64,000 bases of DNA from a virus (Duplodnaviria > Caudoviricetes): the IMG/VR virus record IMGVR_UViG_3300042465_007707, positions 177 to 64,176 of that record, one strand, 5' to 3'. A model generated the notes under the pieces. That model was not told where the DNA came from. It saw nothing but the letters and a program-made list of their open reading frames with translations, and ran no database searches. Both the position numbers and the translations under genes were made by a program. This document shows positions 2,230-48,486 of this stretch, in pieces; position 1 is the first letter of the stretch, and the number at the start of each line of letters is the position of its first letter.

Positions 2230-2499
2230 TTAAACAGCTATATTATTAACGTTTCTGCTTGTTCCATTCTTATTATAACAAAAGAATCCTTCAGGAGCTT
2301 TTTTTAAATCAACTTCATTACCCTTGCTGTCATAACATTTGCCGTTATTATCTAAATCTTTGAAGCATGGAACGTTTGTTGGTATAGTTTGTCCACAAGC
2401 GTTTTTAGCTCCAACCGCTTCAGGCTTTTTTCTAGTGTATAAGTAATAAGCTCCACCTAGTAAAACTATTCCTAATATTATTTTTGTGTTTTTATCCAT
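2230..2499 (-). CDS. small membrane protein, N-terminal TM anchor, Cys-containing ectodomain
   Basis: IILGIVLLGGAYYLY followed by RKK; 4 Cys. Confidence 0.75.
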   Translation of the reverse strand: MDKNTKIILGIVLLGGAYYLYTRKKPEAVGAKNACGQTIPTNVPCFKDLDNNGKCYDSKGNEVDLKKAPEGFFCYNKNGTSRNVNNIAV

Positions 2500-2515
2500 C
2501 TTTAGTTGTTTTTAA

Positions 2516-3172
2516 TTATACCACTTGAGGCAAACTTGTTATTATTATATCTAATGCTCCGCCTTTACCCATCATTTTACGAATGTAATTTAGTGTTACT
2601 GAAGGTATATTTTTATAAATTTTTTCAGGTGTAGAAGTTGCTATTTTATTATTGTTAAAGCCTTTAAGTCCCCAATTATAATAAGGGATAACTCTATCCA
2701 TTCGAATAGTCCCATTAGCATCCTTTCCCCAAGGTTGATCTATGAGCTGACCTAAAATAATTGAACCTATTAAAATGTTAAGTTCAGGCTTTAGATTATC
2801 TACAACAGTTATAGCTCTTGTTTTACCATTTGCATTAAAATTAATTCCGTATGCAGATAATTTAGACTTTTCAGCGTCAGAAAGCCTTCCTGCCTTAAAT
2901 TCATTCTCTAATTGAGATTTCATGTACGAAACATTTGCTTGCATCAAGTTTTTAGTATATCCTTTTCCTGCGTTATAGATGCCTCCACTTTCAACAACGC
3001 TAAAAGCTAACAAAACTGAAACAGGAATATTACTTTGAGCTGCTGCAAATTGAAAAAATTTAGAATACTTATTCCAAGTACCTTCTATTTGTCCTTTAAT
3101 AGAACTATAGCTCCCCCAAGAAGAAGGTGAAGTTAATCCTTTTGTCGGTACATTTAACGTTAATACAGCCAT
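2516..3172 (-). CDS. lytic transglycosylase (SLT/GH23-like)
   Basis: VESGG catalytic Glu motif, LMQ, PELNILIG, YNWG motifs. Confidence 0.75.
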   Translation of the reverse strand: MAVLTLNVPTKGLTSPSSWGSYSSIKGQIEGTWNKYSKFFQFAAAQSNIPVSVLLAFSVVESGGIYNAGKGYTKNLMQANVSYMKSQLENEFKAGRLSDAEKSKLSAYGINFNANGKTRAITVVDNLKPELNILIGSIILGQLIDQPWGKDANGTIRMDRVIPYYNWGLKGFNNNKIATSTPEKIYKNIPSVTLNYIRKMMGKGGALDIIITSLPQVV

Positions 3173-3174
3173 TT

Positions 3175-3342
3175 TTAATTTCTTTTAATTAATATTTGTC
3201 TATTTTTTTTGTTACCAATAGGTAATTGAAGTAATTTCCATCCTTCATTGTTTTTCTTTTTTATGTAAACATAAATTCCTAGACCTATACCTGCTAAAGA
3301 TATTAATCCAGTTATAATTAATGCTTTTCTACTTATTGCCAT
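3175..3342 (-). CDS. small membrane protein (55 aa, not in ORF track)
   Basis: MAISRKALIITGLISLAGIGLGIYVYIKKK...; TACATTTG promoter element at 3362-3369. Confidence 0.7.
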   Translation of the reverse strand: MAISRKALIITGLISLAGIGLGIYVYIKKKNNEGWKLLQLPIGNKKNRQILIKRN

Positions 3343-3506
3343 AATAATAATTATTTATATACAAATGTACTATTATTAAATCTTTTTACAAAAAAAAACC
3401 TTGCTAAATAAATAACAAGGTCAAAACTATATTAATAAAAAGGAAAGTAATTATTTAAGTATAGTTTTATTTTTTATCCTAAGTCGTACCACGCAAATAG
3501 GATTTA

Positions 3507-3737
3507 TTATTTATCTTTTGTTTTAAAAATTTCATCAAAATCAATACTATTTATTACTAATAATGTTTCGATAACTATTATTGATAAAGATACTGCCGTA
3601 TTAAATATTGGCGTAAATATCAAAAAATAATCACTAACCATAGGTTTTGTTCTGTGTGATGTTATATCTGTAAATAAATATATTAAATTTATTACCAAGC
3701 TAATAACATAGATTATTAATACTGTTTTAAGAATCAT
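3507..3737 (-). CDS. small membrane protein, two hydrophobic segments
   Basis: Two hydrophobic stretches; ATGA overlap with upstream gene. Confidence 0.65.
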   Translation of the reverse strand: MILKTVLIIYVISLVINLIYLFTDITSHRTKPMVSDYFLIFTPIFNTAVSLSIIVIETLLVINSIDFDEIFKTKDK

Positions 3738-4108
3738 TTTTTTTCTGTTTTTATAAAATCGTTTTCAATTTTCATTTTTTTACTACAGCACATTATAATA
3801 AATTCATTTATTTCTACAATGTTTTTTTCAAATTCAAGAGATTTTTTCCTTTTTTTAACATAAAAAATAACAGTAGAGTGATGTAAATTTAAAGCAACAC
3901 CAATCTTTTCAAGAGTTTTATATTTTTTAAACTTAGTATTATTTCTTACCCAAAACATTAATAAGAAATGAACCTTGTCTTTTAAATGTTGAATCCGATT
4001 CCTTTTATTTAATTTAAACTTTAAAATTGATCTTTCTAACACGAAGTCATAATCTTTACCTGTGTTTGTATTCACACTTTTAAGTGCTTCATTCCTGTAC
4101 TTACCCAT
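3734..4108 (-). CDS. HTH protein, DnaA C-terminal-like
   Basis: TLEKIGVALNLHHSTVIFY resembles the DnaA domain IV signature; start moved to 4108 because the promoter (4128-4135) and ACGACAAG motif (4112-4119) lie inside the longer ORF. Confidence 0.6.
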   Translation of the reverse strand: MGKYRNEALKSVNTNTGKDYDFVLERSILKFKLNKRNRIQHLKDKVHFLLMFWVRNNTKFKKYKTLEKIGVALNLHHSTVIFYVKKRKKSLEFEKNIVEINEFIIMCCSKKMKIENDFIKTEKK

Positions 4109-4258
4109 AATCTTGTCGTTTATGGAGCAAATGTAATAATAAATTTGATTCAACAATATGTTTTTGCACATTATTTTCTTGAAAACACAAATAGGAGCAT
4201 AAAGCCCCTATTTATCTTACCTATCATATTTCATCTTAGTATTATCAGTACAAATATA

Positions 4259-4804
4259 CTAATTTATTTTAATTGCTTTATTTATTTGACGTACATAATC
4301 CTGAGGGAAAAATAGATTATTCATATCTTCCAATACGAATATCATTTCTAAATCTACAGCATAAGGCAAAACAAACATTGAGCAAATATCTCTATTGTAA
4401 ATTTTTGTAGTTTTTAATTTAAAGCCAAACCATCTATTTAATACGGCTTTTGCTCCATTTATAAAGTCATATTTTATTTTTACCGAATCCTGCTTTTGTA
4501 GAATTTTACTCAGAGATTTATTAATTAAATGTTGAGTTTTTGTTGATCTAACTATAGTGAAATCAGAATAACCTTCAATTCTTTCAGAAAGTCTTTCTGG
4601 ATGAACTCCGTTTCCATTTGAATCAATTAAGAATAAAGCCCCACAAATATTTCCTACAACTCCAACATGATTATAATAAGCTTCCGAATCAGACTCTTGT
4701 ATTATTTTAGAAAGTAATTTATGACCTCTAAATAGAATTAAATCTCCTTGCTTAATTTCAGGACGTAACCGAGCGTACTTTTCTTTGATAAAATTTGAAT
4801 CCAT
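4259..4804 (-). CDS. permuted papain-like NlpC/P60 enzyme (YiiX/YebB/LRAT-like)
   Basis: GDLILF, NHVGVV (His), KYDF, ICS (Cys) in permuted order. Confidence 0.75.
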   Translation of the reverse strand: MDSNFIKEKYARLRPEIKQGDLILFRGHKLLSKIIQESDSEAYYNHVGVVGNICGALFLIDSNGNGVHPERLSERIEGYSDFTIVRSTKTQHLINKSLSKILQKQDSVKIKYDFINGAKAVLNRWFGFKLKTTKIYNRDICSMFVLPYAVDLEMIFVLEDMNNLFFPQDYVRQINKAIKIN

Positions 4805-4805
4805 G

Positions 4806-5408
4806 TTATTTGTTTTTTCGCAAATATATTAATCCGCCTGCAATAATACCAATAATAATTAATGAAATTGATATATTTTTAACAGTTTCAAGTTTTTTAA
4901 ATTTTAAATAACTAGCATCAACTGAATCTTTAACTGAATTATAAACCTGAGTAACTGTGTCGGCATAGTTGGTACTAGTTGCGTATCCTGCTTTCTTCAA
5001 TTCACTCGCTTGTTCACTTACTGTTTTAACCTTTAAAACGTTTGAAAAACGAGGGTTTTCTTTTAAAAGCTTAACATAATCCTCAATTGAATCTTTTATG
5101 CTGTTATAAGCCCTGAAATCAGCATTAACAATTACCTTTTTACCTTTAATTACTTCGCCAGTATCAATGTTATAAGTTTTTCCACTCCATTTTGTAGAAC
5201 TCTTTATTCCGAAAAAATTATTTGATTTACGACTTAGTTTTGATCCACCTACCTTCCAATCACCGTTTTCATCTGTTCCAGAACTTTCTAAAATAGCTTG
5301 AGCGATTAGAGTTCCTGCTAATATTCCTGTACCTTTTACAGTTTTGTGAATAAAAGCTCCGTATTTATCAATAAATTCAGCTCTGGTATATGTATTTGAA
5401 GTACTCAA
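4806..5408 (-). CDS. GH73 (FlgJ-like) glucosaminidase/muramidase with C-terminal TM anchor
   Basis: AQAILES, NNFFGIK, FRAY, GYAT..Y motifs; C-terminal ISLIIIGIIAGGLIYL-RKNK; TTG start. Confidence 0.85.
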   Translation of the reverse strand: MSTSNTYTRAEFIDKYGAFIHKTVKGTGILAGTLIAQAILESSGTDENGDWKVGGSKLSRKSNNFFGIKSSTKWSGKTYNIDTGEVIKGKKVIVNADFRAYNSIKDSIEDYVKLLKENPRFSNVLKVKTVSEQASELKKAGYATSTNYADTVTQVYNSVKDSVDASYLKFKKLETVKNISISLIIIGIIAGGLIYLRKNK

Positions 5409-5417
5409 AATATTAAT

Positions 5418-5549
5418 TTAATTACAAGCTCCGCAAACAGAACTTTTTGTTTCTGTAATAGGTGCGATAACTTCTTTTTTTCTTTTTGTATATAAGTAAA
5501 TAGCTGCGCCAACTAAAGCAATTCCTATTATTAAATTTTTATTTTCCAT
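5418..5549 (-). CDS. small membrane protein (43 aa, not in ORF track)
   Basis: MENKNLIIGIALVGAAIYLYTKRKK...CGAC; N-terminus similar to 2230..2499. Confidence 0.7.
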   Translation of the reverse strand: MENKNLIIGIALVGAAIYLYTKRKKEVIAPITETKSSVCGACN

Positions 5550-5559
5550 TTTATTTTAT

Positions 5560-5925
5560 TTATAAATCTACTCCTTCAACTCCGTTTTCATTTGATACAG
5601 CACTCTCAACCCCTACAGCCTTTTCCGTTTCAGTTGGTTTTGCTTCAGCTTGTGGTTGTGCAGGTTGCTCTTTGTTTGCTTTATGCTTATTCCAAATGTA
5701 ATATAAAGCAGAACCTACGATAATTAATCCAATTATAAATTTACCCTTTTTAGTGAAAAATGGAACTTCTTTTTTTATTGGCGCAACATCTTCAATATCT
5801 GTATCATCTATCGGAATATCAATATCTTTAACTACAGCATCTTTTGGATTTGAACCGTCGCTACTCATCATTCTTTCCATATATTGAGTGCCTGTTGGAT
5901 GACCGTTTATTGAAAAATTATTCAT
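5560..5925 (-). CDS. single-pass membrane protein
   Basis: Central FIIGLIIVGSALYYIW segment; MMSSDG motif variant. Confidence 0.75.
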   Translation of the reverse strand: MNNFSINGHPTGTQYMERMMSSDGSNPKDAVVKDIDIPIDDTDIEDVAPIKKEVPFFTKKGKFIIGLIIVGSALYYIWNKHKANKEQPAQPQAEAKPTETEKAVGVESAVSNENGVEGVDL

Positions 5926-6425
5926 TACACATTATTATTAATTCGGTAATTACGAATGTTTGCAATTGCATTTAAAACGCCTAAAGTAATAAGTCCGTAA
6001 CGAACATATTTGTTTTGAATTTCAGTTCTTGTTCCTGCATAAATTAAAGCTCCTGAAATGACAACTGTACTTACAACTCTAGCTCTTTGACTTTGCTTGT
6101 ACTCTGTAGTTGTAACATCTGTATTACTTCCAATTCCATCAGCATTTATAAACTGATTAATACCTTTTTTTTCACGAAGTTTTCGCTTCATTTTAACTGC
6201 ACGAATCATTTCTTTACTTCCATCTGTAGGAATTATCTTCCATTGAACAGTATCATTTTTATCAGTTGTTTTTTTATACGCAACTGAATCAACGTTTTTC
6301 TTCGCTAAAGAAATAGCCTCTTCACCGTCAACGAATGTTTTTGAAAACATAAAGTTTGGATCTTGACCAATCCAATCAACTTTATATACCGATACTGGCT
6401 TTTGTTTTTGTCTATTTAAACTCAT
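5925..6425 (-). CDS. membrane protein with two C-terminal hydrophobic segments
   Basis: FINADG motif; two hydrophobic helices at C-terminus. Confidence 0.75.
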   Translation of the reverse strand: MSLNRQKQKPVSVYKVDWIGQDPNFMFSKTFVDGEEAISLAKKNVDSVAYKKTTDKNDTVQWKIIPTDGSKEMIRAVKMKRKLREKKGINQFINADGIGSNTDVTTTEYKQSQRARVVSTVVISGALIYAGTRTEIQNKYVRYGLITLGVLNAIANIRNYRINNNV

Positions 6426-7096
6426 TAATTTTTGTATTTTAATTGTGCAAAATGCACAGGGTTTAACAATTTATTACTATCTGTCAATGGTACGTTTGTT
6501 TGTGCTACTGTATTGGATAAATTACCCCCTTGAGTAACTGCATAATTTTTACCATTTATTTTTTTAATGTCAACTACAATGTCACCATGAGATAAAACTC
6601 CACTATTTATTGTGTCTAAGCTAGGATTAGTTCCTGCTCTTCCTTTTACTAGAATATCACCAACTTCAACCGCTTTATTCTCACTAGATTTATAAGCCCA
6701 ATAAGATTTATTTAATTCATTTAATCTGTTCTTTTTTGCATCCACAACATATCCTGAATGTGTTGATTTTGGATTGAAATTTCTATAACCAGACTTATCC
6801 ACTAAATGACTAATATAAACAGCCGACCAAGGGTAACTTAAATGTGTACTCGTTTGCTGCATCTGTTTATTTGTAAAATCCATTCCTGCTAATTTCCAAT
6901 AACCAACTAAATCGCTACTCATTGAAGGATCAGTTTCTGTTTTACCTTTCCAACGTCTTAAATCTTTTTTAGCTAAAAATTGTAATTTAGTATGGTTAAT
7001 TATAAACCTTCTAAAAACATACGAAACAAGAAGAACGGAAGCAACCGAAACCGCAACCGTAATTAATTCTTTTTTATGTTCTTTTACAAAACTCAA
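6425..7096 (-). CDS. DUF2272 (CHAP-related) protein with N-terminal TM anchor
   Basis: YW, PWSAVYIS, GDILV, SHGDIVV, GGNLSNTV motifs; TTG start. Confidence 0.75.
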   Translation of the reverse strand: MSFVKEHKKELITVAVSVASVLLVSYVFRRFIINHTKLQFLAKKDLRRWKGKTETDPSMSSDLVGYWKLAGMDFTNKQMQQTSTHLSYPWSAVYISHLVDKSGYRNFNPKSTHSGYVVDAKKNRLNELNKSYWAYKSSENKAVEVGDILVKGRAGTNPSLDTINSGVLSHGDIVVDIKKINGKNYAVTQGGNLSNTVAQTNVPLTDSNKLLNPVHFAQLKYKN

Positions 7097-7680
7097 ACTA
7101 TTCTAAATGTTTTTAAAATTACGCCTAATATAAATCCGAAACAAATAAGTAAGATTCCAAAAAACCAATATTTTATTCGAGAAAAAATTCTACTGATTAA
7201 TGATCCATTGTTTATAGATTTTCCTTTTGATTCTTTTCTTAATGAAGTCCTGCTTGTTCTTCCAGACTGTTTGATAAATACCTTTTCATTTTTACCATCA
7301 ATTCTAGTTTTAAGTCTTTTTTGACGTGCTTCTAGTCTAATCTCCTGACGTGTTTTATGAATTATAATCGTATCGTATATTGTAATGAATTTAGTCTTTA
7401 AAATCGTATCAATTAATTGTTGTTTTATTTCGTACTGAACCTTAATAGAATCGTTTACATTGTAAGCAATAATAGTAATATATTTATCGTCCACGAAAAC
7501 AGTATCTAAACCTTTTGCCTCTCCTTTAACTTCTTTACTTTTTACTGTAACAGTATCAACTTTTTCTTTTAAAATTGTTGGATCTTTTTTTACAGCTTTT
7601 TCTATTAACTTTGAAGCCGAACAGCTATTGATTAAATAGAATATAATCGAAATTATAAGTATGTAAAGTATTTTTCTCAT
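7093..7680 (-). CDS. putative unimolecular spanin (lipoprotein with C-terminal TM)
   Basis: Signal peptide ending INSC; C-terminal hydrophobic helix; directly downstream of endolysin. Confidence 0.55.
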   Translation of the reverse strand: MRKILYILIISIIFYLINSCSASKLIEKAVKKDPTILKEKVDTVTVKSKEVKGEAKGLDTVFVDDKYITIIAYNVNDSIKVQYEIKQQLIDTILKTKFITIYDTIIIHKTRQEIRLEARQKRLKTRIDGKNEKVFIKQSGRTSRTSLRKESKGKSINNGSLISRIFSRIKYWFFGILLICFGFILGVILKTFRIV

Positions 7681-8117
7681 TTTTTTACGAATAAATCAGC
7701 TTCTAATTTTCTTCTTTTAACAAGCCCATTTAGTACTTTACCTCCACCTTTAATATAATTTGCAACCCACCAATCGTAAACGTGTTCAGATTTATTGTTT
7801 ATTAAAGAAAATAAAGTTTTTGAGCTTCCACAATTCCAACAAAAAGAAACCAAAGCATCAAATTGATTTTGATTTAATGTAACTTTGATATTGGTGTCAA
7901 CTGTTTTTTCGTATTTAGGCAATAGACTTAAAAGCAATTCTTCTGCTCTTGCTTGAGTTATAACATCTCCTAGTTTAAACTTGCTACCATCTGCTCTAGT
8001 CGTATTTCCATAACCAATAGTTATTGGTAAATTACCAGTCGCAGGATCAGGATACGCCTTTAAGCTGCAACCTTCAAATTTTTTAATTAAATCTATACCT
8101 GATTGACTTGTTTTCAT
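7677..8117 (-). CDS. endolysin, GH24 lysozyme
   Basis: IKKFEG, AYPD, TIGYG, NQNQFDALVSF, GLVKRRKLE; start moved to 8117 because TATCTTTG promoter lies at 8142-8149. Confidence 0.9.
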   Translation of the reverse strand: MKTSQSGIDLIKKFEGCSLKAYPDPATGNLPITIGYGNTTRADGSKFKLGDVITQARAEELLLSLLPKYEKTVDTNIKVTLNQNQFDALVSFCWNCGSSKTLFSLINNKSEHVYDWWVANYIKGGGKVLNGLVKRRKLEADLFVKK

Positions 8118-8180
8118 AAAATATCTTTTCAGTTTACCCATCAAAGATAAGCACTTAAAAAGTTTTTATAAAATTAAAAA

Positions 8181-8363
8181 TTATTTTTCGAATTTTTCTG
8201 ACAATACTTCTCTGAAAATAATTTTTTTATTGTCCGATTCTGTTTTATTGTTGAGTAAATTAAAATGAAAAATATCAACAATACCATAATAGCAATTAAT
8301 ACACTTACAACGACTACTTTTGCTATGACCTGATAATACAATTCTAAAATTATTCATTATCAT
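8181..8363 (-). CDS. hypothetical protein
   Basis: Short ORF between holin and endolysin; start overlaps holin stop. Confidence 0.35.
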   Translation of the reverse strand: MIMNNFRIVLSGHSKSSRCKCINCYYGIVDIFHFNLLNNKTESDNKKIIFREVLSEKFEK

Positions 8364-8814
8364 TTTTTATAACATCGTCAAAATCTTTTTTAATCTTTTT
8401 TGCTCTACCTAGCATAGATTTAATTTTTTCCCAAATATTTACACCTGTTGCTGCTTCAATATTTTCCGAGATACTTAATAACTCAATACCAACTAATAAT
8501 GTAGCAACAACTTTTGTTAAAAATAAAGGAATTGAAGTGAATATCAATATAAAATCACCAACTAAAAACTTTTCTAAAGCGAAAAATAAGATTACCGAAG
8601 CTTGATACAATACCATTTTAGATACTATAGAAGATAAACCTTTGCTAGTTATTTTAGTACCTTCCTTTTTACATTTCCAAACACCGAAAATTGTATCTAA
8701 AAATATCATTAATCCAACCAATATAAGTAATGGTTTAATAGGCATTAAAAACGCACTTAAAATAATTAATATTTTATCAAGTGTGATTCTTTTTAATAGA
8801 GCAATTTTCATCAT
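8350..8814 (-). CDS. holin (phage holin 4-like)
   Basis: 3 TM segments, LDTIFG, ITSKGL, IELLSISEN motifs; upstream of endolysin. Confidence 0.85.
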   Translation of the reverse strand: MMKIALLKRITLDKILIILSAFLMPIKPLLILVGLMIFLDTIFGVWKCKKEGTKITSKGLSSIVSKMVLYQASVILFFALEKFLVGDFILIFTSIPLFLTKVVATLLVGIELLSISENIEAATGVNIWEKIKSMLGRAKKIKKDFDDVIKNDNE

Positions 8815-9212: not shown

Positions 9213-9560
9213 TTAATCTATAATTATTTCAATATCATTTACTGAAATACCAAATGTACCAGCCATTTGTATTCTGAATCCTAAATAGTAAAGATAAGTT
9301 GTTGAATCTGTATAGTTCAAACCCGTTGGAACTTGATCTTTTACTAATTCATATAATGTATTAGTATCTTCTGCAGATACAGGATACATATTGTTTGCAA
9401 TCATTTGACCGCTTTCACTTGAATATTCAAACATATAATTTGAATCAAATCCATATCTTAATTGTTGACTACAAGAGCTTAAAGTTCCTGTTACTAATCC
9501 TGTTTCTTGACCTGCAATTCCATTATTGTAAGTTACTGGTACTAATGTTTTAATTTTCAT
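9213..9560 (-). CDS. small partner/chaperone of spike protein
   Basis: Directly follows fibre gene; start moved to MKIKTL to avoid overlap. Confidence 0.55.
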   Translation of the reverse strand: MKIKTLVPVTYNNGIAGQETGLVTGTLSSCSQQLRYGFDSNYMFEYSSESGQMIANNMYPVSAEDTNTLYELVKDQVPTGLNYTDSTTYLYYLGFRIQMAGTFGISVNDIEIIID

Positions 9561-9574
9561 ATTTATTTTTATTA

Positions 9575-10816: not shown

Positions 10817-10818
10817 TA

Positions 10819-11142
10819 TTAATTATTTAAAAGTTCTAAACAAATAGCTAATACTTTGTCAACTGTTAACTTATCATTTTCATCTAATTCAGAAACAGTT
10901 AATACAATAGTTAATCCTGTTATAGGTTGTATGCCTAATTCATCATTATTAGTTGTATAACTACAATAATCAAATTCTTCAACCTGTGTTAGTAAAAATG
11001 TTTTTAAATCTAAAAAGGCTTGCATTTGAACTTCTGTTAATTCAGATACAAATCTAATTTCTGTAGGTTCTGACTCTTCAGATGGCACTATTATTAAAGC
11101 TCCATCTAATTGTCTATACATTATTTGTTTATACGTTTTCAT
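10819..11142 (-). CDS. small acidic partner/chaperone of spike protein
   Basis: Directly follows the 989-aa fibre gene. Confidence 0.55.
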   Translation of the reverse strand: MKTYKQIMYRQLDGALIIVPSEESEPTEIRFVSELTEVQMQAFLDLKTFLLTQVEEFDYCSYTTNNDELGIQPITGLTIVLTVSELDENDKLTVDKVLAICLELLNN

Positions 11143-11153
11143 TAATATATATT

Positions 11154-14123: not shown

Positions 14124-14138
14124 ATTTTTTTTTATATT

Positions 14139-14381
14139 TTATAAGTAATAATTATTTCTAATTTCTATTGGAACGTTCTCCATTTGTTGAAATGTATAAA
14201 ACAACAAAGGAGTTTGTTCAGTAATAAATGAAGGAGTTTCAGCAATTGCTATAGCTTCATTTTCATATACCTTATAACTTGCTATATAGTTTTCAATTGT
14301 AACACTAGAAGGTTTTAAACAAACATTCGCTTCTAAATCATCTTCAATAACTGTTGTTGGTATTAATATAAATTGTTCCAT
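14139..14381 (-). CDS. small acidic partner/chaperone of spike protein
   Basis: Directly follows the 739-aa fibre gene. Confidence 0.55.
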   Translation of the reverse strand: MEQFILIPTTVIEDDLEANVCLKPSSVTIENYIASYKVYENEAIAIAETPSFITEQTPLLFYTFQQMENVPIEIRNNYYL

Positions 14382-14383
14382 AA

Positions 14384-39367: not shown

Positions 39368-41523
39368 AGGTATTTTATTGCTTTTTTAAGACTTTCTATA
39401 AGTTTATCGGGCTTGTCAGTATATTTACCTGCCTTTTCTAAAATGTCTATCCTTTTTTGTAGTTTTTCTTTTTCTGAACTAATTTCCAAAGGTAACACAT
39501 TTTTATCAAATTTTTCTTTTATGTTAATTGATTTAATTACGGATTCGTCTGTTTCTTTAACGAAAATAGTATCGAATATCTCGTCTGGAGTTAAATTATT
39601 TCCAAATAAACCTGATCCGCTATTTTCGTCCACACCCTTATTATATTTTAACAAAGCATTTTTAAAGGAGTTAGCTTTTTGATTTAAAAACCAATTTATT
39701 ATAATTGCCTTTTCAGTTTTTAAGTCCTCATCGTCCTCAAATATACTTTGTTCTGTAACGTATTGCTTAACCGACTTATAGTTGTTTAAAACCATTTGAT
39801 TTTGAATAAGCATAGCTTTGTTAAGATCCTCTATTAAACTACCTTCCTTAAATGATTTATTTTTAATTAAAGGTATAATAGCATTAACAACATTTTTAGT
39901 TACCGACTTGATACCTTCATTTTGGCTTATTTCAATAGCATCTGAATTTAAAACAAGACTTACCAAAATAGTTTCGTAAAAAACCTTTCCATTTTCAGTT
40001 AGAGAAGTATCAGTAAACAGATTTGATATTTCATTTTCTGTTATTATTCCACATTCTAAAATTGTTTTTTTAAACCTATTTACGGCATTTCTATCATTGT
40101 ATAGTTCACTAACTATATCTTGTTCTGAAATAATTGAAATTAAAGCATTTCTACACCCTTCATTATCTTTTATTTGTTGAGATAGTCTAATACCTAAATC
40201 TATTTGTCTTTCAGACTTTGCTGTAGATTTATTATACCTATTTAGTTCTGAAGTTACATAGGAGTTAAAATCAAGATCAAACCTAACTAAAACTGGTTGT
40301 TTAAATTTAGCATAAACTTGCTCCATATTAATTCCATACCCACCATATTTTAATTCATTATATAGTGTTTTAACGTATGAATCATAATTTTGTTTATAGT
40401 TTTTTGTTGCTAACTTTAAACTCATTACCCTATTATTACCACTTACTACAATACCATCTATTGTAATTATAGGAGTTCCATTAGCTGTAGGGCTTGTAGT
40501 TATTATAATTTCTGGAGTTAATTTTTCTGCTACCGAAATAACTTTAGCTTGTGCGTTTTTATCACCAGAATAATTCCTATCGTTCACATTCCTTCCTTTA
40601 TCATCAGTAGGGTAATTTTCAGAATTACCAAAAGTTTGTTCGTTATGAGATGCTATTATATTTTCTAATTCAACAACAGCAAAAATAGATTTGTTCTTTT
40701 TATTATCAGGAAAAACAAGCTCTCTTTCTCTACCTAAAACTATATTCGTTTCTAAAAAGTTTTTTCTATATCCTATTTTAAAAAATCCTTCGTTTTTTAA
40801 TTTCGATATGTTTATTTCAGTTAAAAGATCAATGTTTGAAACGTTATTTTCTTCTATTGGTTCTGTTGGTTTAAAATCTAATTTTGATTCAATATCTTTT
40901 ATTTCTGGTATTTTTTCTTCGTCAAAAACAAAAGTTGTTAAAGGTTTTGCTTGGTATCTATCTTCTTTATAGTCTATATTATTTTTAAGCCAAGATTCTT
41001 TTGAATTTAATTTAACAGCATAATATAACTCTTTGAAATTAGTAACAGCACCTATTTTTGTATCTGTTTTTCCTTTGTATAAATTCTTATTTTTCCAATT
41101 ATCTTCGTTTATGACACCATTTAATATTTTAAAATAATCAATGTTATCTCTACCTATTATTCCGTCAAAAGAAAAATTATTACTTTTTAATTCTTTTTTT
41201 TCATTATAATAAACCCATAAATCAAAAAATGATTGTTGGTTTTTGCTATATTCACATTTTTGCAGTTCAGATGCAATTTTAGATATTAAATCTTCTAAAC
41301 TTTTTTCTTTTGTTGAACCAGCATATCTTACATAAGTTTCTATATTACAACCGAAATTATCAATTTTCCACTTTATAAATTCCTCACCCATTAAATCGGG
41401 CGTTTTTATTCTCGAATTATAAGAACCTTTGTCATAGCCAGAGGTCATTCTATTATAGCTTACGCCAAATTTATTTATTAAAATTTCGGCTTCTTTTTTC
41501 CAATAATCGTAATCTTTATACAT
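39364..41523 (-). CDS. DdrB-like ParB-domain protein
   Basis: AVVELENIIASH, NDRNY, GTPII..DGIVVSGNNR, PVLVR motifs. Confidence 0.7.
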   Translation of the reverse strand: MYKDYDYWKKEAEILINKFGVSYNRMTSGYDKGSYNSRIKTPDLMGEEFIKWKIDNFGCNIETYVRYAGSTKEKSLEDLISKIASELQKCEYSKNQQSFFDLWVYYNEKKELKSNNFSFDGIIGRDNIDYFKILNGVINEDNWKNKNLYKGKTDTKIGAVTNFKELYYAVKLNSKESWLKNNIDYKEDRYQAKPLTTFVFDEEKIPEIKDIESKLDFKPTEPIEENNVSNIDLLTEINISKLKNEGFFKIGYRKNFLETNIVLGRERELVFPDNKKNKSIFAVVELENIIASHNEQTFGNSENYPTDDKGRNVNDRNYSGDKNAQAKVISVAEKLTPEIIITTSPTANGTPIITIDGIVVSGNNRVMSLKLATKNYKQNYDSYVKTLYNELKYGGYGINMEQVYAKFKQPVLVRFDLDFNSYVTSELNRYNKSTAKSERQIDLGIRLSQQIKDNEGCRNALISIISEQDIVSELYNDRNAVNRFKKTILECGIITENEISNLFTDTSLTENGKVFYETILVSLVLNSDAIEISQNEGIKSVTKNVVNAIIPLIKNKSFKEGSLIEDLNKAMLIQNQMVLNNYKSVKQYVTEQSIFEDDEDLKTEKAIIINWFLNQKANSFKNALLKYNKGVDENSGSGLFGNNLTPDEIFDTIFVKETDESVIKSINIKEKFDKNVLPLEISSEKEKLQKRIDILEKAGKYTDKPDKLIESLKKAIKYL

Positions 41524-41525
41524 TA

Positions 41526-41744
41526 TTAATCAATATTATTAACTGAATAAAGTCTTTCAACTTCTACTATTGCTTCCGAAATATTGATTTTCCTTGACAA
41601 AATCGTTTCAGCTATTGTTTGTAATAAAGCATTTCTCAATTCAATATTAGAGTAGTTGTAACAAACTACAGGAGTAACAGATGAATCGCAAAATTCTAAC
41701 TCTGTTTGAATCTGAATGTAAAGTTTTTCTAGTAAATTTTCCAT
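41526..41744 (-). CDS. hypothetical protein
   Basis: Small ORF tightly packed in the Dar-like operon. Confidence 0.65.
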   Translation of the reverse strand: MENLLEKLYIQIQTELEFCDSSVTPVVCYNYSNIELRNALLQTIAETILSRKINISEAIVEVERLYSVNNID

Positions 41745-41747
41745 TTT

Positions 41748-42980
41748 TTATCTTTTTTTAAATACAACAATTTCAGACGATACGCCAGTTCTTTCAAATA
41801 TATTAATAGGTAATCTGTAGGCATCTATTAAATCAGCTTTTTCAAATATAATTTCTTTAACCTTTGATAATGGCGAATCTAAAAATAATGATCCACCATT
41901 ATATTGTTCAGCACCTACAATGTATATTAAAAGTCCACCTTGAACTAATAAATCTAATCCCCTTGTAATAAAATACTCAGTAAAGTTACCTGCTTTAGTA
42001 AAAGAATCCTCTCCCATAGCTATATATTTAGAATCTAGTTTACCATAAGGCGGATTTCCTATAACTAACGAATATTTATCTAAATTTTCAGTTTTGTTTT
42101 TAATTGTCATATTGCCTTTTAAGAAGTTTTGCTCAAAATATTTTAGTTCTACTTTAGCGTTTGGATATAGTATTTCACAAATTTTAACTGAGTATTCATT
42201 GATTTCATTTGCTACCAACTTAACGTCTTTAGGCGCATATTTTAAAAAAGCACCTATACCAACTGAAGGCTCAAAAACAGAATTGTCTGCTATCGTTCCA
42301 TATCCATATTTATAAGCCAAAGCCCACATTTTTTTTACAACTGCATCAGGAGTATAAAATTCATACATTAACCCTTTCATTCGTTCTATTCCTATTTCAC
42401 CAAACTTTTCAAGTCCACCATATCCAGAATAATAAGATATAAACTCTAGTTCATCATTAGAATAGTTGTCGCTATCTCCTTTTTGTTCTAAAAGCCTTTC
42501 GATTGCTTTATTTATTTCATACGGATTTTTATAGCTTTCAATATCAGTTTTAATTTCTGGTATTAATTCTTCTTCAATATCTTCTTCTTCATCAATATCT
42601 TCACCAATTATTTTAGATAATTTTTTTGGATCAAAATAAAAATCTAATTCTGTATAATTTTTAAGTTCCTCAATATCTATATAACCTAATTCAGCATCTT
42701 CCATATCTCCATTTAGAATAGTGAATCCAAACGCTTGTAATTGTTCTTCCTCAATATCTTTCTCTAATATGTACCAATCACTAGACGAACTGAAGTAATG
42801 TAAATAAGCTATTTTTTGTAATTTCGGTATTCCGTCCGTTTCGTATGTTTTCGGCATAGTAGTAATAGTTGTGTATAAATCATCTATTACTTCATTATAG
42901 CTATCTAAATTGCTTTTAACTACTTCATATTGCCCTTTTCCGAAAAACGGCTTTACAACCTTTAATTTATCTATTTCCAT
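41748..42980 (-). CDS. N6-adenine DNA methyltransferase (DarB-type) with N-terminal DUF2958-like domain
   Basis: YSGYGGL, EFYTP, FEPSVGIGAF (motif I), IGNPPY (motif IV); N-terminal DWYILE..AFG..ELGYIDIEEL. Confidence 0.85.
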   Translation of the reverse strand: MEIDKLKVVKPFFGKGQYEVVKSNLDSYNEVIDDLYTTITTMPKTYETDGIPKLQKIAYLHYFSSSSDWYILEKDIEEEQLQAFGFTILNGDMEDAELGYIDIEELKNYTELDFYFDPKKLSKIIGEDIDEEEDIEEELIPEIKTDIESYKNPYEINKAIERLLEQKGDSDNYSNDELEFISYYSGYGGLEKFGEIGIERMKGLMYEFYTPDAVVKKMWALAYKYGYGTIADNSVFEPSVGIGAFLKYAPKDVKLVANEINEYSVKICEILYPNAKVELKYFEQNFLKGNMTIKNKTENLDKYSLVIGNPPYGKLDSKYIAMGEDSFTKAGNFTEYFITRGLDLLVQGGLLIYIVGAEQYNGGSLFLDSPLSKVKEIIFEKADLIDAYRLPINIFERTGVSSEIVVFKKR

Positions 42981-42992
42981 TTTGTTTTATTT

Positions 42993-45305
42993 TTATACAA
43001 TGTTAATCAAAAGTTTTAACCCTCGTATCTGTTTTTCTATAATATTTTTTTGATCCCCTTCAAGCATAGGTACTAACAATTCTAAACCACGAACCTGAGT
43101 TTCTAAAATTGATTCTTCGCTTTCTTGTTCTATTGTTTCGTGTTTTAAAGCTTTTTCAAACTCATCAATACTTTTCTTTTCTGTTTTTTTATCCCTTCCA
43201 TCAATAGAACCTAAAGAATAAGCTTCAATTGATTTAGCCCCATTAAAATCTGGAACATAACCAAATTGATACGCTGTGTTTTCATATCCTTTTGTGTAAA
43301 AATCGTATAGTTCAACTATATCTTCATTTTCCTTTTCCATTTTAGCTAGATCCTCGTAATATTCTGGATTCTCCTTAATATGTGTTTTTGCCGTTTCAAC
43401 AACTGCTTGTTCTGGTGTTAATTTACGTTCAGCTACCTTTTTTAATGTAGCCAAATGTTCCATTTCGTGTTCAGTTCCTTTTGCTAGTTCTCCACCACCT
43501 TTGAATTTTTTAGTTTTAATATATTCTTTTGCGTCTTCAATGTAAGTTTCTATTTCATCAATTACACTATCAAAAGAATCATCACCACTAAAATATATTT
43601 GAGGTCTATTTTGTTGAAACCTTCCCCTTGTAGCATCTTTATTTGCTATAACAACCGATAAGCTCCTATCTATACCATAAGGTAGATTAGATTCATTTTG
43701 TGAATGATCCGCAATCCTTAATTGAATAGAACCTATTGAATCATTTTCTTCGTTTGTATCGTCCTCTGAATAAACATCAATAGTGTTATACTTATAATTT
43801 CCGAATTTATTTTTAGCCCACTCTTGAACTTCATCTAATAAATCTTCTGAACTGGAATTAATAGCTGAAACAACTCTATTTTCAATGTTTTCAAATTCTC
43901 CTTCTTCAGTTAATTCATAGTAATAAGAATCATCATAATATTCTTCAATTGGATAATCGTCTATACTTTCTTCCTCATCTAATTCATAAATAAATTTATA
44001 TTTATCAATCTTTTTTTCTAATGAAACGCTAAATTCACTATCTCCAAAATCACCAATAGTAGCCCCTTCGTATTCACTTTTAGCATCTTCGTAACTCATT
44101 GTTACAAGTTTAATTTCAGAATCATCGTCCGTATCAAATCTAACTTGGTAAAGTTCTAATTCAACTTCGTCACCAATTCCACCACCACCTTTGAATTTCT
44201 TCTCTGAATTAGGCATCCTTTTCATTGAATAAAAATCGCTATTTACTACAAATCCAAATTTACTATAATAGTTGATTAGATATTCCTTCGTAATTTTAGA
44301 TTTCTTTTCTTCGTTGTCTAAAAAGTAAGTGTGTTTAGGGCTTGGTTCTAAATAAATAGTAACCTTAAACTCGTCTGCTTTATCAACTATTTTTTGTAAA
44401 TATTTTTTAGCATCAATTGATTGATTTTTTTTCTCAAAAACATCTAAAATAACAACATTATTTTCTTTGTAAGGTTGGATTTCATTTGGCAAAGAAAAAG
44501 AAATATTCATTTCATCTGAAATCGGCTTATACCAATCAATAAACCATTTACTAAATGATTGTACACCTTGTATTCCACCACCACCTTCAAATTTTTTAGT
44601 AGGTTTGTGTCCCCAGATTAATAGGGCTGTATGTTTTCTAGTTTTACGACCTTTATCATCGTAAAGCTCACCTTTCATACCACTCATTCGCTTGATAAAT
44701 GATATTTGCTTTTTAGCCCAACGCCACATATCAGAACTCCATAGTTTATATGGTATATCCTTCATTTTCATTAGCCACCTTGCGGATTCTCTACCTGAAT
44801 CAATACCTTGCTTGTTCGCTTCAGATTCACTCAATCCTGCTTGTTTTCCTTCTGGTGAATTATAGAAATTTGTTATCTCAGATTTACTCATATTTACAAG
44901 TGACTTCCACTCGGCATAAGTTTCAGCATCTAATTTTTTGCCTTCTGGTGTGTTGTAAAAAGCTTTTAGCTCAGATGGTGTCATGTTGGATATATTACCA
45001 CCTTGTATATATTTAGCCAGAATTTCAGCTTCTTCATCACCAATAGCAACACCATTTCCTTCCATTTGATTTAATGTAGAAAGTATTTCTTTTGGCGTTC
45101 CTTTTACGGTTAAAACCTTGTCAGATTGAACGGTCTTTTTGTTTATTATAACCTCGTTCCCTTCAAGTTCTACAGGAGTACCACCTTGGTCGGTTACAAT
45201 AGCTTTAATACCACCTAGTGAATTGCCCTCTGAATCGTAATGTGCTTTGCCTTTCAGCATACCGCCTTTTGATCCATTATTAGTTTCGAAAAATCTTTTA
45301 GCCAT
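42993..45305 (-). CDS. polyvalent protein (GG..G..H..GGI..ELEG domain, DUF3140-like, GNAT-like, acidic/RIADH domain, DUF5661-like)
   Basis: VNMS..E..SGRES..WGHKP; KIVDKADE..YLEP..YYSKFGF; KGTEHEMEH..HIKENPEYYEDL; domains separated by YIQGG, FEGGGG, FKGGGG, FKGGG. Confidence 0.75.
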   Translation of the reverse strand: MAKRFFETNNGSKGGMLKGKAHYDSEGNSLGGIKAIVTDQGGTPVELEGNEVIINKKTVQSDKVLTVKGTPKEILSTLNQMEGNGVAIGDEEAEILAKYIQGGNISNMTPSELKAFYNTPEGKKLDAETYAEWKSLVNMSKSEITNFYNSPEGKQAGLSESEANKQGIDSGRESARWLMKMKDIPYKLWSSDMWRWAKKQISFIKRMSGMKGELYDDKGRKTRKHTALLIWGHKPTKKFEGGGGIQGVQSFSKWFIDWYKPISDEMNISFSLPNEIQPYKENNVVILDVFEKKNQSIDAKKYLQKIVDKADEFKVTIYLEPSPKHTYFLDNEEKKSKITKEYLINYYSKFGFVVNSDFYSMKRMPNSEKKFKGGGGIGDEVELELYQVRFDTDDDSEIKLVTMSYEDAKSEYEGATIGDFGDSEFSVSLEKKIDKYKFIYELDEEESIDDYPIEEYYDDSYYYELTEEGEFENIENRVVSAINSSSEDLLDEVQEWAKNKFGNYKYNTIDVYSEDDTNEENDSIGSIQLRIADHSQNESNLPYGIDRSLSVVIANKDATRGRFQQNRPQIYFSGDDSFDSVIDEIETYIEDAKEYIKTKKFKGGGELAKGTEHEMEHLATLKKVAERKLTPEQAVVETAKTHIKENPEYYEDLAKMEKENEDIVELYDFYTKGYENTAYQFGYVPDFNGAKSIEAYSLGSIDGRDKKTEKKSIDEFEKALKHETIEQESEESILETQVRGLELLVPMLEGDQKNIIEKQIRGLKLLINIV

Positions 45306-46707: not shown

Positions 46708-46737
46708 AATTGTCTGTTTTTATTTATTATTACTTGT

Positions 46738-47067
46738 TTAATTACTTAATTTATAGCTTGAAAAAGCTAAATTTTGCTCGTTCCATTCTTTAACGTCAAT
46801 ATCCCAGTTCTTTTTATTTTTTAAAGCGAAAAGAATCTGACTAAGACGATCTTTATTATTAACCATTATTTTCTTCTGATAATAATTTAAATCATCTGTA
46901 TCCAATAAAATATCAATATTTGGAATTATGATCTCGTATGTCGTTTTATAAAAATCCTTACAATAAGCCGAACCTTCGCAAAAAATCAAAGTTTTTGGTA
47001 TATCTCCTGAAGATAAGAGCTGAAAAGCTTCCTCTCTTAAATCTGAATAAAGGACGTTTTCACTCAT
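46738..47067 (-). CDS. hypothetical protein
   Basis: Coupled ORF. Confidence 0.7.
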   Translation of the reverse strand: MSENVLYSDLREEAFQLLSSGDIPKTLIFCEGSAYCKDFYKTTYEIIIPNIDILLDTDDLNYYQKKIMVNNKDRLSQILFALKNKKNWDIDVKEWNEQNLAFSSYKLSN

Positions 47068-47270
47068 TACCTAATTGCAATAGATGAATTAAGTATCGGT
47101 GTAATAGAAAGCGAATCGGTCGATTCTTTATCGTATTTTACCAAAATAATACCGTCATAAATACCTCTTTTAATAATGTACTTAACCCCTTTTACAGTTA
47201 ATGTAATGGCCTCAACTTCATCTAATGATAGCAAGCCTTCTTTTCGCTTATCTCCTATTTCTAATCTCAT
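47067..47270 (-). CDS. hypothetical protein
   Basis: ACGACAAA motif directly upstream. Confidence 0.7.
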   Translation of the reverse strand: MRLEIGDKRKEGLLSLDEVEAITLTVKGVKYIIKRGIYDGIILVKYDKESTDSLSITPILNSSIAIR

Positions 47271-47284
47271 GATTTTGTCGTTTT

Positions 47285-47521
47285 TTAATTATTAGTACCG
47301 TTGAATTTATCTGAAAAAAAAGATTTAATACCAAAACAGTATAAATTTTCTCCCATATCTTTCATTTGAAAGGCTGACTTTGGAAACCAGTTTTTTGATC
47401 CATGTATATCAATTAACACAGCTTTTTCAGTAGATTTTTCTACATTAGCAAAAAAATTGCCTACCATGTGAATACAACCATTCGATTGTACTTGTTTGTT
47501 TAATTCTTCTATTGCGCTCAT
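47285..47521 (-). CDS. hypothetical small beta protein
   Basis: STEKAVLI...WFPKS; start moved to MSAIEE, after promoter 47541-47548 and ACGACAAG 47525-47532. Confidence 0.7.
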   Translation of the reverse strand: MSAIEELNKQVQSNGCIHMVGNFFANVEKSTEKAVLIDIHGSKNWFPKSAFQMKDMGENLYCFGIKSFFSDKFNGTNN

Positions 47522-47570
47522 AATCTTGTCGTATTTTTGACAAATATACAAATTAAATTGAATCAACAAA

Positions 47571-47586
47571 TTATTTTGTAAAATAA
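47571..47586. promoter_or_regulatory. 16-bp palindromic operator-like site
   Basis: TTATTTTGTAAAATAA, 22 bp upstream of TATATTTG. Confidence 0.55.
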
Positions 47587-48486
47587 TTATTTTTTTATTT
47601 GTTTTGAATCAGGATTACCATAAAAATCTCTCATATACGTTGCAATTATGTGTTTTACAGCTACTGATCTGTCTTTATGAACTAGATTACCAGTATGAAT
47701 ATCACGCTTTTTAACTTCTTTTTCAATGATTGAATAATTATCCGTTAAATAGTCCTCAACGGCTTTTTGAAATTCAGCACGAGAAAAATTTCCTTTAACT
47801 TTTTTCATGTCTTTATCAACGAATAAAAAGAAACGTTCGTCACCACCTCTATATTTGTTTTCAACTAATTTTTCAGCTAAATGCAAGTGAGTAACATCTG
47901 TTCCGAATTTATTTTCGTGTTTTTTTACAGTATCTTCAGTTTTATGAATCCTTAACCAATTACAATTAGCCCACAACTTAGGGTGCGCCATTTTTCCAAC
48001 TGACTGAAAGTGCAAAATAATATCACAACTTTTATGTCTTTGAGTACAAATAGCTCCAATTAAATCACTTGGTAATGAATCTGAAAGGAACTTAGTAATA
48101 TCCTCAATAAGTAATAAACCATTTTTAAAGTTCTCCAGAATAACACCTAAAGCATCAGCAGTTTCTTTTAAAGTCATTTGACCACCACCTTCTTTTAAAA
48201 TAGTTACCCTTCTAGCTTCTACTATACCATTGTGACACCATTTACCTATATCCGATAAACGGATAGCTCTAATATGTGCAAAGTTTGGGTTTTGATCCGA
48301 CTGAACATTTCCAAATTCATTATTTACATCTAAAATAAGAACCTTTCTAGGCTTTGCTCCTATACTTGTATTTCCTCTTAAAGTTGGTTGCATCATAGCG
48401 AGAGTAGAGTAGGATTTACCCACTCCCTTCATTCCTATTGCAATTCCTAATTGTGCTTCCCTATATTTAATTTCTGCCATAATCAA
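47587..48486 (-). CDS. FtsK/HerA-superfamily genome packaging ATPase (P9/A32-like)
   Basis: Walker A GMKGVGKS, VLILDVNNEF, Walker B LLLIED, QRH arginine finger, then IILHFQ sensor. Confidence 0.7.
   Translation of the reverse strand: MIMAEIKYREAQLGIAIGMKGVGKSYSTLAMMQPTLRGNTSIGAKPRKVLILDVNNEFGNVQSDQNPNFAHIRAIRLSDIGKWCHNGIVEARRVTILKEGGGQMTLKETADALGVILENFKNGLLLIEDITKFLSDSLPSDLIGAICTQRHKSCDIILHFQSVGKMAHPKLWANCNWLRIHKTEDTVKKHENKFGTDVTHLHLAEKLVENKYRGGDERFFLFVDKDMKKVKGNFSRAEFQKAVEDYLTDNYSIIEKEVKKRDIHTGNLVHKDRSVAVKHIIATYMRDFYGNPDSKQIKK

Follow-up and report, generated by a model that had tools for sequence, protein, structure and literature searches.

Halopanivirales, with P23-77 (Matshushitaviridae) and SH1 (Sphaerolipoviridae), are the described viruses nearest to the one analysed here, and PRD1 and PM2 come next. 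We analysed a 64,000-nt stretch of DNA (hereinafter the window), bases 177–64,176 of the single 64,176-bp IMG/VR record IMGVR_UViG_3300042465_007707 (called G000). The window probably encodes a tailless, membrane-lined virion with a 220-amino-acid (aa) jelly-roll protein in its shell.

Halopanivirales infect Thermus and haloarchaea and have genomes of 17–31 kb, in which an ATPase gene, small-protein gene(s), single-jelly-roll coat gene(s) and small membrane-protein genes follow in order; they have two dissimilar coat proteins. The SH1 genome is linear and, according to the abstract of its ICTV profile, has inverted terminal repeats (ITRs) and terminal proteins. PRD1 and PM2 (10–15 kb) have double jelly-roll coats and many small membrane proteins, and their genes are ordered P9 (the packaging ATPase), small membrane protein, coat and membrane proteins. 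The PRD1 record is linear and carries terminal-protein and polymerase genes, the polymerase being a protein-primed polymerase B. Salisaeta icosahedral phage 1 (SSIP-1) is a tailless, membrane-containing phage with a Bacteroidota-related host. Its circular genome (43,788 bp), with many hydrophobic open reading frames (ORFs), is the largest among the tailless membrane phages compared.

G000 differs from these viruses in its size (~67 kb), its apparent single main coat gene, its many paralogues, its polyvalent, recombination and lysis modules, and the lack of a recognisable DNA polymerase. Specifically, the window has one main coat gene and a distant paralogue instead of two dissimilar coat proteins, the main candidate has ~160 folded residues in one sandwich instead of a double jelly roll, and Halopanivirales are without polyvalent, RecT or SbcC modules. 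General PHROG and Pfam scans of ORFs of at least 200 aa, without a dedicated polymerase B profile, recognised no DNA polymerase. Other than that, the gene order and the small membrane proteins resemble those of Halopanivirales, PRD1 and PM2, the genome is linear like those of SH1 and PRD1, and a relative, G002, has two adjacent jelly-roll genes. No coat sequence similarity to P23-77, SH1, PRD1, PM2 or SSIP-1 is detectable. Searches of SSIP-1 with the lineage profiles A1 (coat) and A3 gave no significant match (best E values of 0.67 and 0.4), and BLASTP of G000, G002 and G004 proteins against SSIP-1 gave none.

A putative packaging ATPase with a moderate link to those of membrane-containing viruses

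The 299-aa putative packaging motor is a P-loop ATPase of the FtsK/HerA superfamily, as an initial annotation of the window had proposed from its motifs. Its Walker A motif is GMKGVGKS, and Pfam DUF87/HerA is matched by 39 of the 46 members of its family (best E 8.4e-8). A word-limited search found 491 homologues. The top PHROG for the family is phrog_2666, labelled ‘terminase large subunit’, with 15 of the 46 members matching (best E 6.7e-9) and the G002 orthologue at 6.3e-6. A DnaC-like family is matched weakly by 13 of the 46 (best E 0.0021). In six-frame searches of known membrane phages, phrog_2666 hits exactly the annotated packaging ATPases of PRD1 (P9), PM2 (P9), P23-77 (ORF13) and SH1 (ORF17), four of the five phages tested, SSIP-1 being the exception.

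Profile–profile alignment points in the same direction. With a 75-sequence alignment of the ATPase family, hhalign gave 73% to P23-77 ORF13 (E 3e-5, 180 columns), the best match, and 67% to a joint alignment of the PRD1, PM2, P23-77 and SH1 packaging ATPases. Other ATPases scored 38% (M13 pI, Zot-type), 3.5% (F TraC, VirB4-type), 1.0% (TraD) and 0.8% (the FtsK motor; a TQRP-like motif is an FtsK feature). With a narrower ATPase alignment the score was 39%, versus 40% for M13 pI. These comparisons suggest a link of moderate strength between the ATPase family and virus packaging ATPases.

The 328-aa protein encoded directly upstream is a candidate packaging accessory. Homologues stand upstream of the ATPase in G002, G004, a Fluviicola provirus described below and most loci from metagenome-assembled genomes (MAGs), and no usable family match was found in PHROGs or Pfam. 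A sequence search of solved structures with the ATPase profile, the coat profile, the zincin (below) and the 303-aa protein of the terminal repeat gave nothing usable.

Two jelly-roll proteins as coat and vertex candidates

The 220-aa protein was modelled with AlphaFold2 on 56 homologues, with mean predicted local distance difference test (pLDDT) of 73.8. The model contains an all-beta sandwich (residues 45–201), and both termini are disordered. The beta-rich capsid candidate with its own terminator in the initial annotation is thereby recovered as a predicted jelly-roll sandwich followed by a hairpin. Fold searches with the model returned mostly virus capsid jelly rolls, including most of the top 50 VIA rows. 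The matches include capsids of nepo-, como- and picornaviruses, satellite viruses, PR772 penton P31, and the phiCjT23, STIV and FLiP capsids; the PR772 protein, a homologue of PRD1 penton P31, is among the best, with Z of 5.7. A complex prediction with three copies (residues 40–205) gave a score of 0.02, which counts neither way. In a protein atlas the 220-aa protein has leads under 0.9 only, including a crAss auxiliary capsid protein at 0.86.

The 220-aa protein has 95 close homologues, and its family comprises 1,288 representative clusters at E ≤0.001 (598 at 1e-10, 126 at 1e-30) among 1.84 billion proteins. The family is length-constrained (~217–262 aa); among its top 150 representatives, 4 fuse two complete jelly-roll domains. 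G000, G001, G002 and G004 each have at least two members, with a tandem pair in G002. G010, an IMG/VR record of 102,228 bp, has five jelly-roll domains of the family spread over four genes, including a fused double gene. This double gene is an additional paralogue located away from the ATPase, while the gene found 2.8 kb from the ATPase has a single domain. The 220-aa protein is the only virion-block protein, other than membrane proteins and enzymes, that is conserved in G000, G001, G002 and G004. A capsid role for it is suggested by weak fold scores, with no specific structural match, together with synteny; conservation and gene order weigh more than the fold matches.

The 326-aa protein is a paralogue of the 220-aa protein (BLASTP E 1e-8; hidden Markov model of the coat profile A1, E 9e-11), and the two genes are 2.3 kb apart. 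Its model matches PR772 P31 with Z of 6.3, the insertion resembles FliD D2–D3 with Z of 7.7, and the Foldseek top row is a mavirus penton, a weak match (E 3.7e-3). Several penton proteins are built as a single jelly roll carrying an insertion; for this reason the 326-aa protein is read as a vertex or penton candidate.

Gene order and hosts of the lineage

The nearest relative's record, G001, is 71–74% identical to the window in the coat protein and ATPase, and G004 (74,101 bp) is a distant relative. G000, G001, G002 and G004 have in common the ATPase, the 220-aa protein, the zincin, a 136-aa anchored protein, two further anchored proteins and two early proteins; the 328-aa ATPase partner is also common (the G001 record starts at the ATPase). 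The genes of G004 run ATPase, 58-aa membrane protein, jelly-roll gene and then anchored membrane proteins, the same order as PRD1 P9-P20-P3, PM2 P9-P7-P2 and P23-77 ORF13-VP15-VP16/17. In G000, insertion of the polyvalent block has parted the ATPase gene from the coat gene.

Scanning one genome for each species yielded 25 ATPase loci, of which the record labels assign 12 to Bacteroidota, 2 to Ignavibacteria and 11 to others (mostly short MAG contigs). The Bacteroidota loci are mostly in Flavobacteriales (Crocinitomicaceae, Parvicellaceae, Fluviicola). On contigs of at least 100 kb, six of the seven loci are in Bacteroidota and one is labelled Glaciecola. The coat gene is also present in all five whole genomes tested. 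The lineage is widespread and undescribed, and its relatives integrate in Flavobacteriales genomes; by their proviruses, G000 would likewise have a Bacteroidota host.

Cultured Fluviicola chungangensis MAH-3 carries a low-GC provirus of ~23.5 kb with the lineage core, at about 118.3–141.8 kb of a 223-kb contig. Its genes include a large serine recombinase, a patatin-like lipase, a DUF2272 lysin, a membrane-protein block, the zincin, the jelly-roll gene and the ATPase trio, and its large unidentified ORFs are without counterpart in G000, G001, G002 and G004. Because the provirus consists of the core plus integrase, lysin and unassigned genes, it has no room for a tail. No att repeats longer than 13 bp were found around it. 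The patatin-like phospholipase gene (G005:C18 120346–121434) adjoins the integrase gene; such an enzyme is notable in a virus that would carry or cross lipid membranes. A second provirus (36% GC) lies at 902301–923146 of CP034120.1, a complete chromosome labelled Glaciecola amylolytica (a gammaproteobacterium). It is 76–80% identical in parts to the Fluviicola provirus, which may reflect a broader range of hosts or a question of labelling.

Against 50,697 phage records, tblastn with the ATPase and the 220-aa coat protein and megablast with window 10000–34000 gave no match. No description of such a lineage was found in literature searches that included passages of PMC5894146; supplementary contig lists may hold relatives.

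A block of small membrane proteins around a conserved zincin

Hydropathy was scanned with the Kyte–Doolittle scale (19-aa window, threshold 1.5) over 97 non-overlapping ORFs of at least 45 aa. A hydrophobic segment is present in 39 of the 97, and 28 of these are single-pass and at most 260 aa, in agreement with the roughly 28 small single-pass membrane proteins of the initial annotation. At 17.3–27.9 kb, 19 of 22 ORFs carry such a segment, and several members of the block are conserved in G001, G002 and G004. The scan is crude: a beta-strand of the 220-aa protein is picked up as well. Applied to other viruses, it gives 10/60 for the tailed part of G001 (a phage from the same kind of sample), 10/27 for PRD1, 6/18 for PM2 and 19/66 for SSIP-1. 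An internal membrane is suggested by this gene content.

The block is interrupted by the gene of a 249-aa zincin, a candidate maturation or entry peptidase. It has no Pfam, PHROG or PDB match, and the atlas gave unnamed clusters.

The motif [FYWM][SNGDL][NYS][AFVYL][DGS]G, a pattern picked post hoc, occurs 12 times in seven proteins encoded in window 17878–31036, versus 0.53 ± 0.75 in shuffled sequences. Eleven of the 12 copies are in the disordered ends of both jelly-roll proteins and in four membrane proteins, and one is in the 739-aa fibre; the motif is kept near residue 19 of the G002 and G004 coat homologues. Nine virion-block proteins (window 9575–26091) start with Met-Gly (MGF, MGT, MGV, MGY), and three fibre proteins of G004 begin MADFG...GFFGGE followed by a glycine run. 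At window 18342–18504, two 79-bp direct copies with 94% identity encode GGDDPYSYAGG repeats of a 225-aa anchored protein.

The genome is linear and closed by inverted terminal repeats

Genome 61036–61134, when reverse-complemented, is identical to bases 1–99 of the record. A de Bruijn assembler that collapses a long inverted repeat into one copy leaves such a trace. Logan unitigs from sequencing runs define the repeat. In run X1, possibly that of the source sample, a depth-19 unitig ends at window 60889, a separate 3,140-base unitig with depth of 31.1 spans 60860–63999, and a third unitig with depth of 15.4 joins 60860 from other sequence. In run X2, from another sample and another study, a unitig exits 60860 into the same other sequence as in X1. 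In both runs the loose end at 60860 is the reverse complement of genome 100–129. The depth of the repeat compared with its flank is 10.3 vs ~5.5 in X2 and 9.3 vs ~5–6 in X3 (60613–60813 being uncovered in both), and the depth over 60860–63999 is raised ~1.6–1.9-fold in all three runs with usable flanking depth, the depth of X5 being uninformative.

The inverted junction and the depth together place the 3,141 bp of the right end, inverted, also at the left end, which gives a linear genome of 64,176 + 3,141 − 99 = ~67.2 kb. Contigs from three runs end at most 87 bases from the window end, which hints weakly at a physical end. The window comprises all of the unique sequence and a single copy of the terminal repeat of a linear double-stranded DNA virus of ~67.2 kb. 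Because the ITRs bound the genome, all unique sequence is in hand and no head or tail genes lie off the contig. Similarly, G004 is closed by a perfect 653-bp ITR. Direct terminal repeats were found in neither G000 nor G001, and G002 has no end overlap. The CheckV completeness of ‘100’ for G000 was not trusted, as G001, read as a chimera (below), scores the same.

The ITR duplicates whole genes, including those of the 303-aa protein (61994–62905) and the very basic 255-aa protein (62902–63669). Homologues of the 303-aa protein are near the left end of G002 and G004. No family or PDB match of the pair points to a polymerase.

Search for tailed-phage hallmark genes

Each window ORF of 200 aa or more was searched with PHROGs and/or Pfam, and each of 400 aa or more with PHROGs. 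Among these ORFs the searches detected no terminase, portal, HK97 capsid or head protease, nor any credible tape measure; the sole tape-measure match (E 0.0019) is on the basic 255-aa protein. Six-frame searches of G000 with PF03237, PF05065, PF04860, PF03354 and phrog_2 gave no match, and phrog_2 matched none of G000, G002, G004 and G010, compared with 1.8e-35 for the tailed part of G001. The initial annotation had recognised no terminase, portal, HK97 capsid or tape measure in the piece it covered. The searches of the whole contig agree, with none detected elsewhere on it and ITRs as its bounds.

G001 served as positive control. Beyond 18.5 kb of this record, the same tools detect TerS, TerL (2e-34), portal (4e-80), head protease and tape measure. 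The last ~700 bp of G001 (53825–54524) repeat its own 16974–17673, inside a fibre gene, with 699 of 700 bases identical. The jelly-roll part begins abruptly at the ATPase, without the two upstream partners present in the other relatives examined. A near-identical fibre C-terminus shared by two viruses would have led the assembler from one into the other. The G001 record is therefore read as a chimera of a jelly-roll virus and a circular tailed phage of ~36.85 kb, apparently joined through the shared fibre end, and its tailed-phage genes were rejected as lineage genes. Tetranucleotide correlations of G001 are compatible with a chimera and not decisive.

The shared 700-bp fibre stretch implies recent exchange of a receptor-binding domain between a jelly-roll virus and a tailed phage. 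G001 also has copies of an HNH gene at 19033–19563 and 29945–30436, with a homologue in G004.

None of the 20 largest ORFs of G004 is a head or packaging gene. The ‘TerL’ PHROG matches of its 823-aa protein (51986–54457) were rejected; in Pfam this protein is a MoxR-type AAA_5 ATPase with Hom_end/LAGLIDADG, an insert that we interpret as an intein. G002 has a protein of this Pfam family without the intein, 447 aa long.

Genome organisation and accessory modules

G000 has a GC content of ~30%, and the minus strand holds nearly all genes from 2.2 to 63.7 kb (Table 1). Along this strand, small early genes with the 303-aa/255-aa gene pair come first, followed by the SbcC-like, RecT and metallo-hydrolase genes and the ATPase trio. 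The 13.5-kb polyvalent/DarB-like block, the two jelly-roll genes with three plus-strand genes between them, ~20 small membrane proteins around the zincin gene, the long fibres and the holin and hydrolase lysis cassette then follow. The virus lives in lake water: window DNA recurs in lake-water metagenomes from several studies, at least 0.24 of the window's sampled words are present in eight lake-water runs, and no RNA dataset is among the listed runs that hold window DNA.

The polyvalent block has PHROG matches to DarB-like, methyltransferase and helicase families and a Pfam match to ddrB-ParB (E 1.7e-16). In its DarB-like methylase/helicase domains and its ddrB-ParB domains it resembles the phage P1 Dar system and the polyvalent proteins of phages and conjugative elements; in G000, though, several ORFs share these domains between them, and the genome has no detectable tailed-phage genes. 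P1 Dar proteins are packaged in the virion. The 686-aa and 770-aa proteins, read by eye, are chains of small domains with [FY]xxGG(G)[EI] linkers (KFEGGGGI, FEDGGEI). These linkers may be processing sites, with the conserved zincin as candidate protease.

In the spike/fibre module, fibre repeats are read in the fibre sequences, the 989-aa protein matches tail-spike and virion-structural PHROGs at ~1e-22, and homologues of the module are in G001. Among solved structures, 49961–50380 matches RusA only weakly (E 0.018).

Table 1. Features of the window, with positions counted from its first base
Feature	Position	Strand	Basis or remark
Lysis cassette	2230..8814	-	Pfam; also holds small membrane proteins
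C92-like amidase	4259-4804	-	Pfam
Glucosaminidase	4806-5408	-	Pfam
DUF2272	6425-7096	-	Pfam
Lysozyme	7677-8144	-	Pfam
Holin	8350-8814	-	Pfam
Spike/fibre module	9213..17334	-	142-aa and 91-aa conserved proteins; fibres of 739, 989 and 413 aa; 134-aa protein
~20 small single-pass membrane proteins	17393..27036	-	N- or C-terminal anchors; zincin gene interrupts block
249-aa zincin	22966..23715	-	Motif HEFSH; 41–67% identity in G001, G002, G004
Terminator-like hairpin	27064..27095	-	14-pair stem then T-run; just past stop codon of 220-aa gene
220-aa single jelly-roll protein, major coat candidate	27120..27782	-	AlphaFold2 model, fold searches, conservation
326-aa paralogue of 220-aa protein	30056..31036	-	Jelly roll, ~100-aa insertion domain, conserved C-terminal tail
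Polyvalent/DarB-like block	31824..45305	-	Lies between ATPase and coat gene in G000
Proteins of the block			686 aa; 1680 aa (helicase/methylase-like); 719 aa (ddrB-ParB); 410 aa (methyltransferase-like); 770 aa
DnaA_C helix-turn-helix/328-aa/ATPase gene trio	49.9-47.6 kb	-	
299-aa FtsK/HerA-superfamily P-loop ATPase, putative packaging motor	47587..48486	-	Family profiles
328-aa protein	48483..49469	-	Gene overlaps ATPase start; directly upstream of ATPase across lineage
147-aa protein, DnaA C-terminal helix-turn-helix	49466..49909	-	Pfam Bac_DnaA_C E 4.9e-12; upstream of 328-aa/ATPase pair, conserved
tRNA-Ser	50395-50467		ARAGORN; sole tRNA
Recombination module	50837..56585	-	PHROGs
Metallo-hydrolase	50837-51562	-	PHROGs
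RecT	53350-54234	-	PHROGs
SbcC-like	54624-56585	-	PHROGs
Small early genes and 303-aa/255-aa gene pair	63.7-57 kb	-	
ITR, one copy, at least 3,141 bp	60860..64000		Carries 303-aa and 255-aa genes and two small ORFs

Discussion

Several observations weigh against a tailless, membrane-lined virion with the 220-aa protein in its shell. The virus is known here from its genes. The 220-aa model is an eight-stranded-type sandwich, a common arrangement, and its best Z of 6.0 (root-mean-square deviation of 3.2–4.6, 96–116 residues aligned) is below the typical best of 7–8 that the tool gives for models without a clear match. AlgX and CBM-, nucleoplasmin-, Ena pilus- and phage-tail-associated sandwiches score like capsids. 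For the 326-aa protein, only one of five AlphaFold2 models is confident (pLDDT 67; the other four 42–47). The window's own ATPase matches Pfam DUF87/HerA with E of 0.0017 and 18.9 bits, under the 23.2-bit cut-off, and has no phrog_2666 match of its own; 31 of the 46 family members scanned have none either. phrog_2666 is not virus-specific, as it has matches in 14 of 14 control cellular genomes; hhalign values of 67–73% are only moderate, with M13 pI at 38%. P23-77 (3/24) and SH1 (3/36) have few hydrophobic ORFs, so a rich membrane block is typical and not universal. The fibres resemble tail fibres, the atlas labels of related clusters are Uroviricota, and the nearest relative's record does contain tailed-phage genes, its chimera status being our own reading.

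Noise-level fold scores would fit a shell of another, unrecognised fold, or a pleomorphic or enveloped virus, in which the jelly rolls serve only at the vertices, as decoration or in receptor binding. Fibre knobs and cement proteins can likewise be jelly rolls, there are many paralogues and they vary (G010 has five domains), and the atlas leads to an auxiliary capsid protein of crAss phages. We nevertheless regard such a virion as unlikely: the remaining conserved virion-block proteins are membrane-anchored, very small or a zincin, and the 220-aa gene, from a large, length-constrained family and with its own terminator, sits at the coat-gene position of PRD1, PM2 and P23-77. Chances are slimmer still that G000 is a tailed phage (Caudoviricetes) whose hallmark genes are too divergent or off the contig. 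Its fibres match tail-spike and tail-fibre PHROGs, its lysis, RecT and DarB-like modules are of kinds usual in tailed phages, and the G001 record and the Uroviricota labels join the lineage to such phages. Against this, ITRs close G000 and likewise G004, a 23.5-kb provirus is without room for such genes, and every ORF of at least 400 aa is fibre, polyvalent, SbcC-like or coiled-coil with a membrane anchor. Moreover, the same tools find TerS, TerL, portal and protease in the very phage that shares the fibre domain, and the end repeat of G001 (699/700) fits a circular 36.85-kb phage fused in assembly.

A mobile element that is not a virus, for example a plasmid or a conjugative element in which the ATPase and the membrane proteins form a transfer apparatus, is the hardest to reconcile with the data and is very improbable. 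FtsK/HerA ATPases also drive conjugation, large DarB-like proteins are also found on conjugative elements, and the ATPase family has weak TrwB, AAA_10 and Zot matches (one or two of the 46 members each). However, hhalign to TraD, TraC and FtsK is at most 3.5%, general PHROG and Pfam scans of the window gave no relaxase, pilin or VirB-type match, and the holin–lysozyme cassette, the long fibres and the linear ITR ends are unlike such an element. A non-jelly-roll fold combined with an ATPase clustering with conjugative or Zot proteins, the outcome against which the initial annotation had staked its proposal, was not seen; the prediction is of jelly-roll type and packaging ATPases align best. Its proposed internal-membrane Bacteroidota virus of at least 64 kb is supported, with the genome now ~67.2 kb and linear with ITRs. 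The membrane and the host are suggested by gene content and by the relatives' proviruses.

A tailless, membrane-lined particle could work as follows. Most likely, the virion would be an icosahedral shell that has no tail and is lined inside by a lipid membrane. Its shell would consist of the 220-aa jelly-roll protein, the 326-aa paralogue, with its insertion domain, would form or decorate the vertices together with the long fibres, and the ~20 small anchored proteins would populate the internal membrane. By homology and gene order, the 299-aa ATPase and its two upstream partners may pump DNA into a preformed particle at a special vertex in a PRD1-like manner. By analogy with P1, the DNA is probably accompanied in packaging and delivery by the polyvalent DarB-like proteins. 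Release is by the holin and several cell-wall hydrolases, as the family matches show.

New here are the ITR closure, the link of the ATPase family to the PRD1/PM2/P23-77/SH1 family, the conserved gene order and the Fluviicola provirus. We tentatively suggest, as a possibility that we hold with some reserve, that the genomes represent a high-rank undescribed lineage of single-jelly-roll, membrane-lined Bacteroidota viruses. It would range from 23-kb proviruses to linear ITR genomes of more than 100 kb, with single, tandem or fused coats, tail-less delivery of large polyvalent anti-defence proteins and receptor-domain exchange with tailed phages.

Described tailless membrane-containing bacterial viruses are 10–44 kb among those compared, in line with the much smaller genomes that the initial annotation attributed to them, and are rare in culture, whereas this lineage is common. 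If the virion is as proposed, genomes of 64–102 kb with tailed-phage-like modules would change the assumed size limit of this virion type. Virome classification would be affected, since relatives are being labelled Uroviricota, and the finding would bear on what chloroform treatment removes from viromes. The provirus in the cultured Fluviicola strain is a direct experimental entry point. The single, tandem and fused coat genes bear on the origin of double jelly-roll capsids; if the high-rank lineage is real, the coat series would represent living steps from a single to a double jelly roll.

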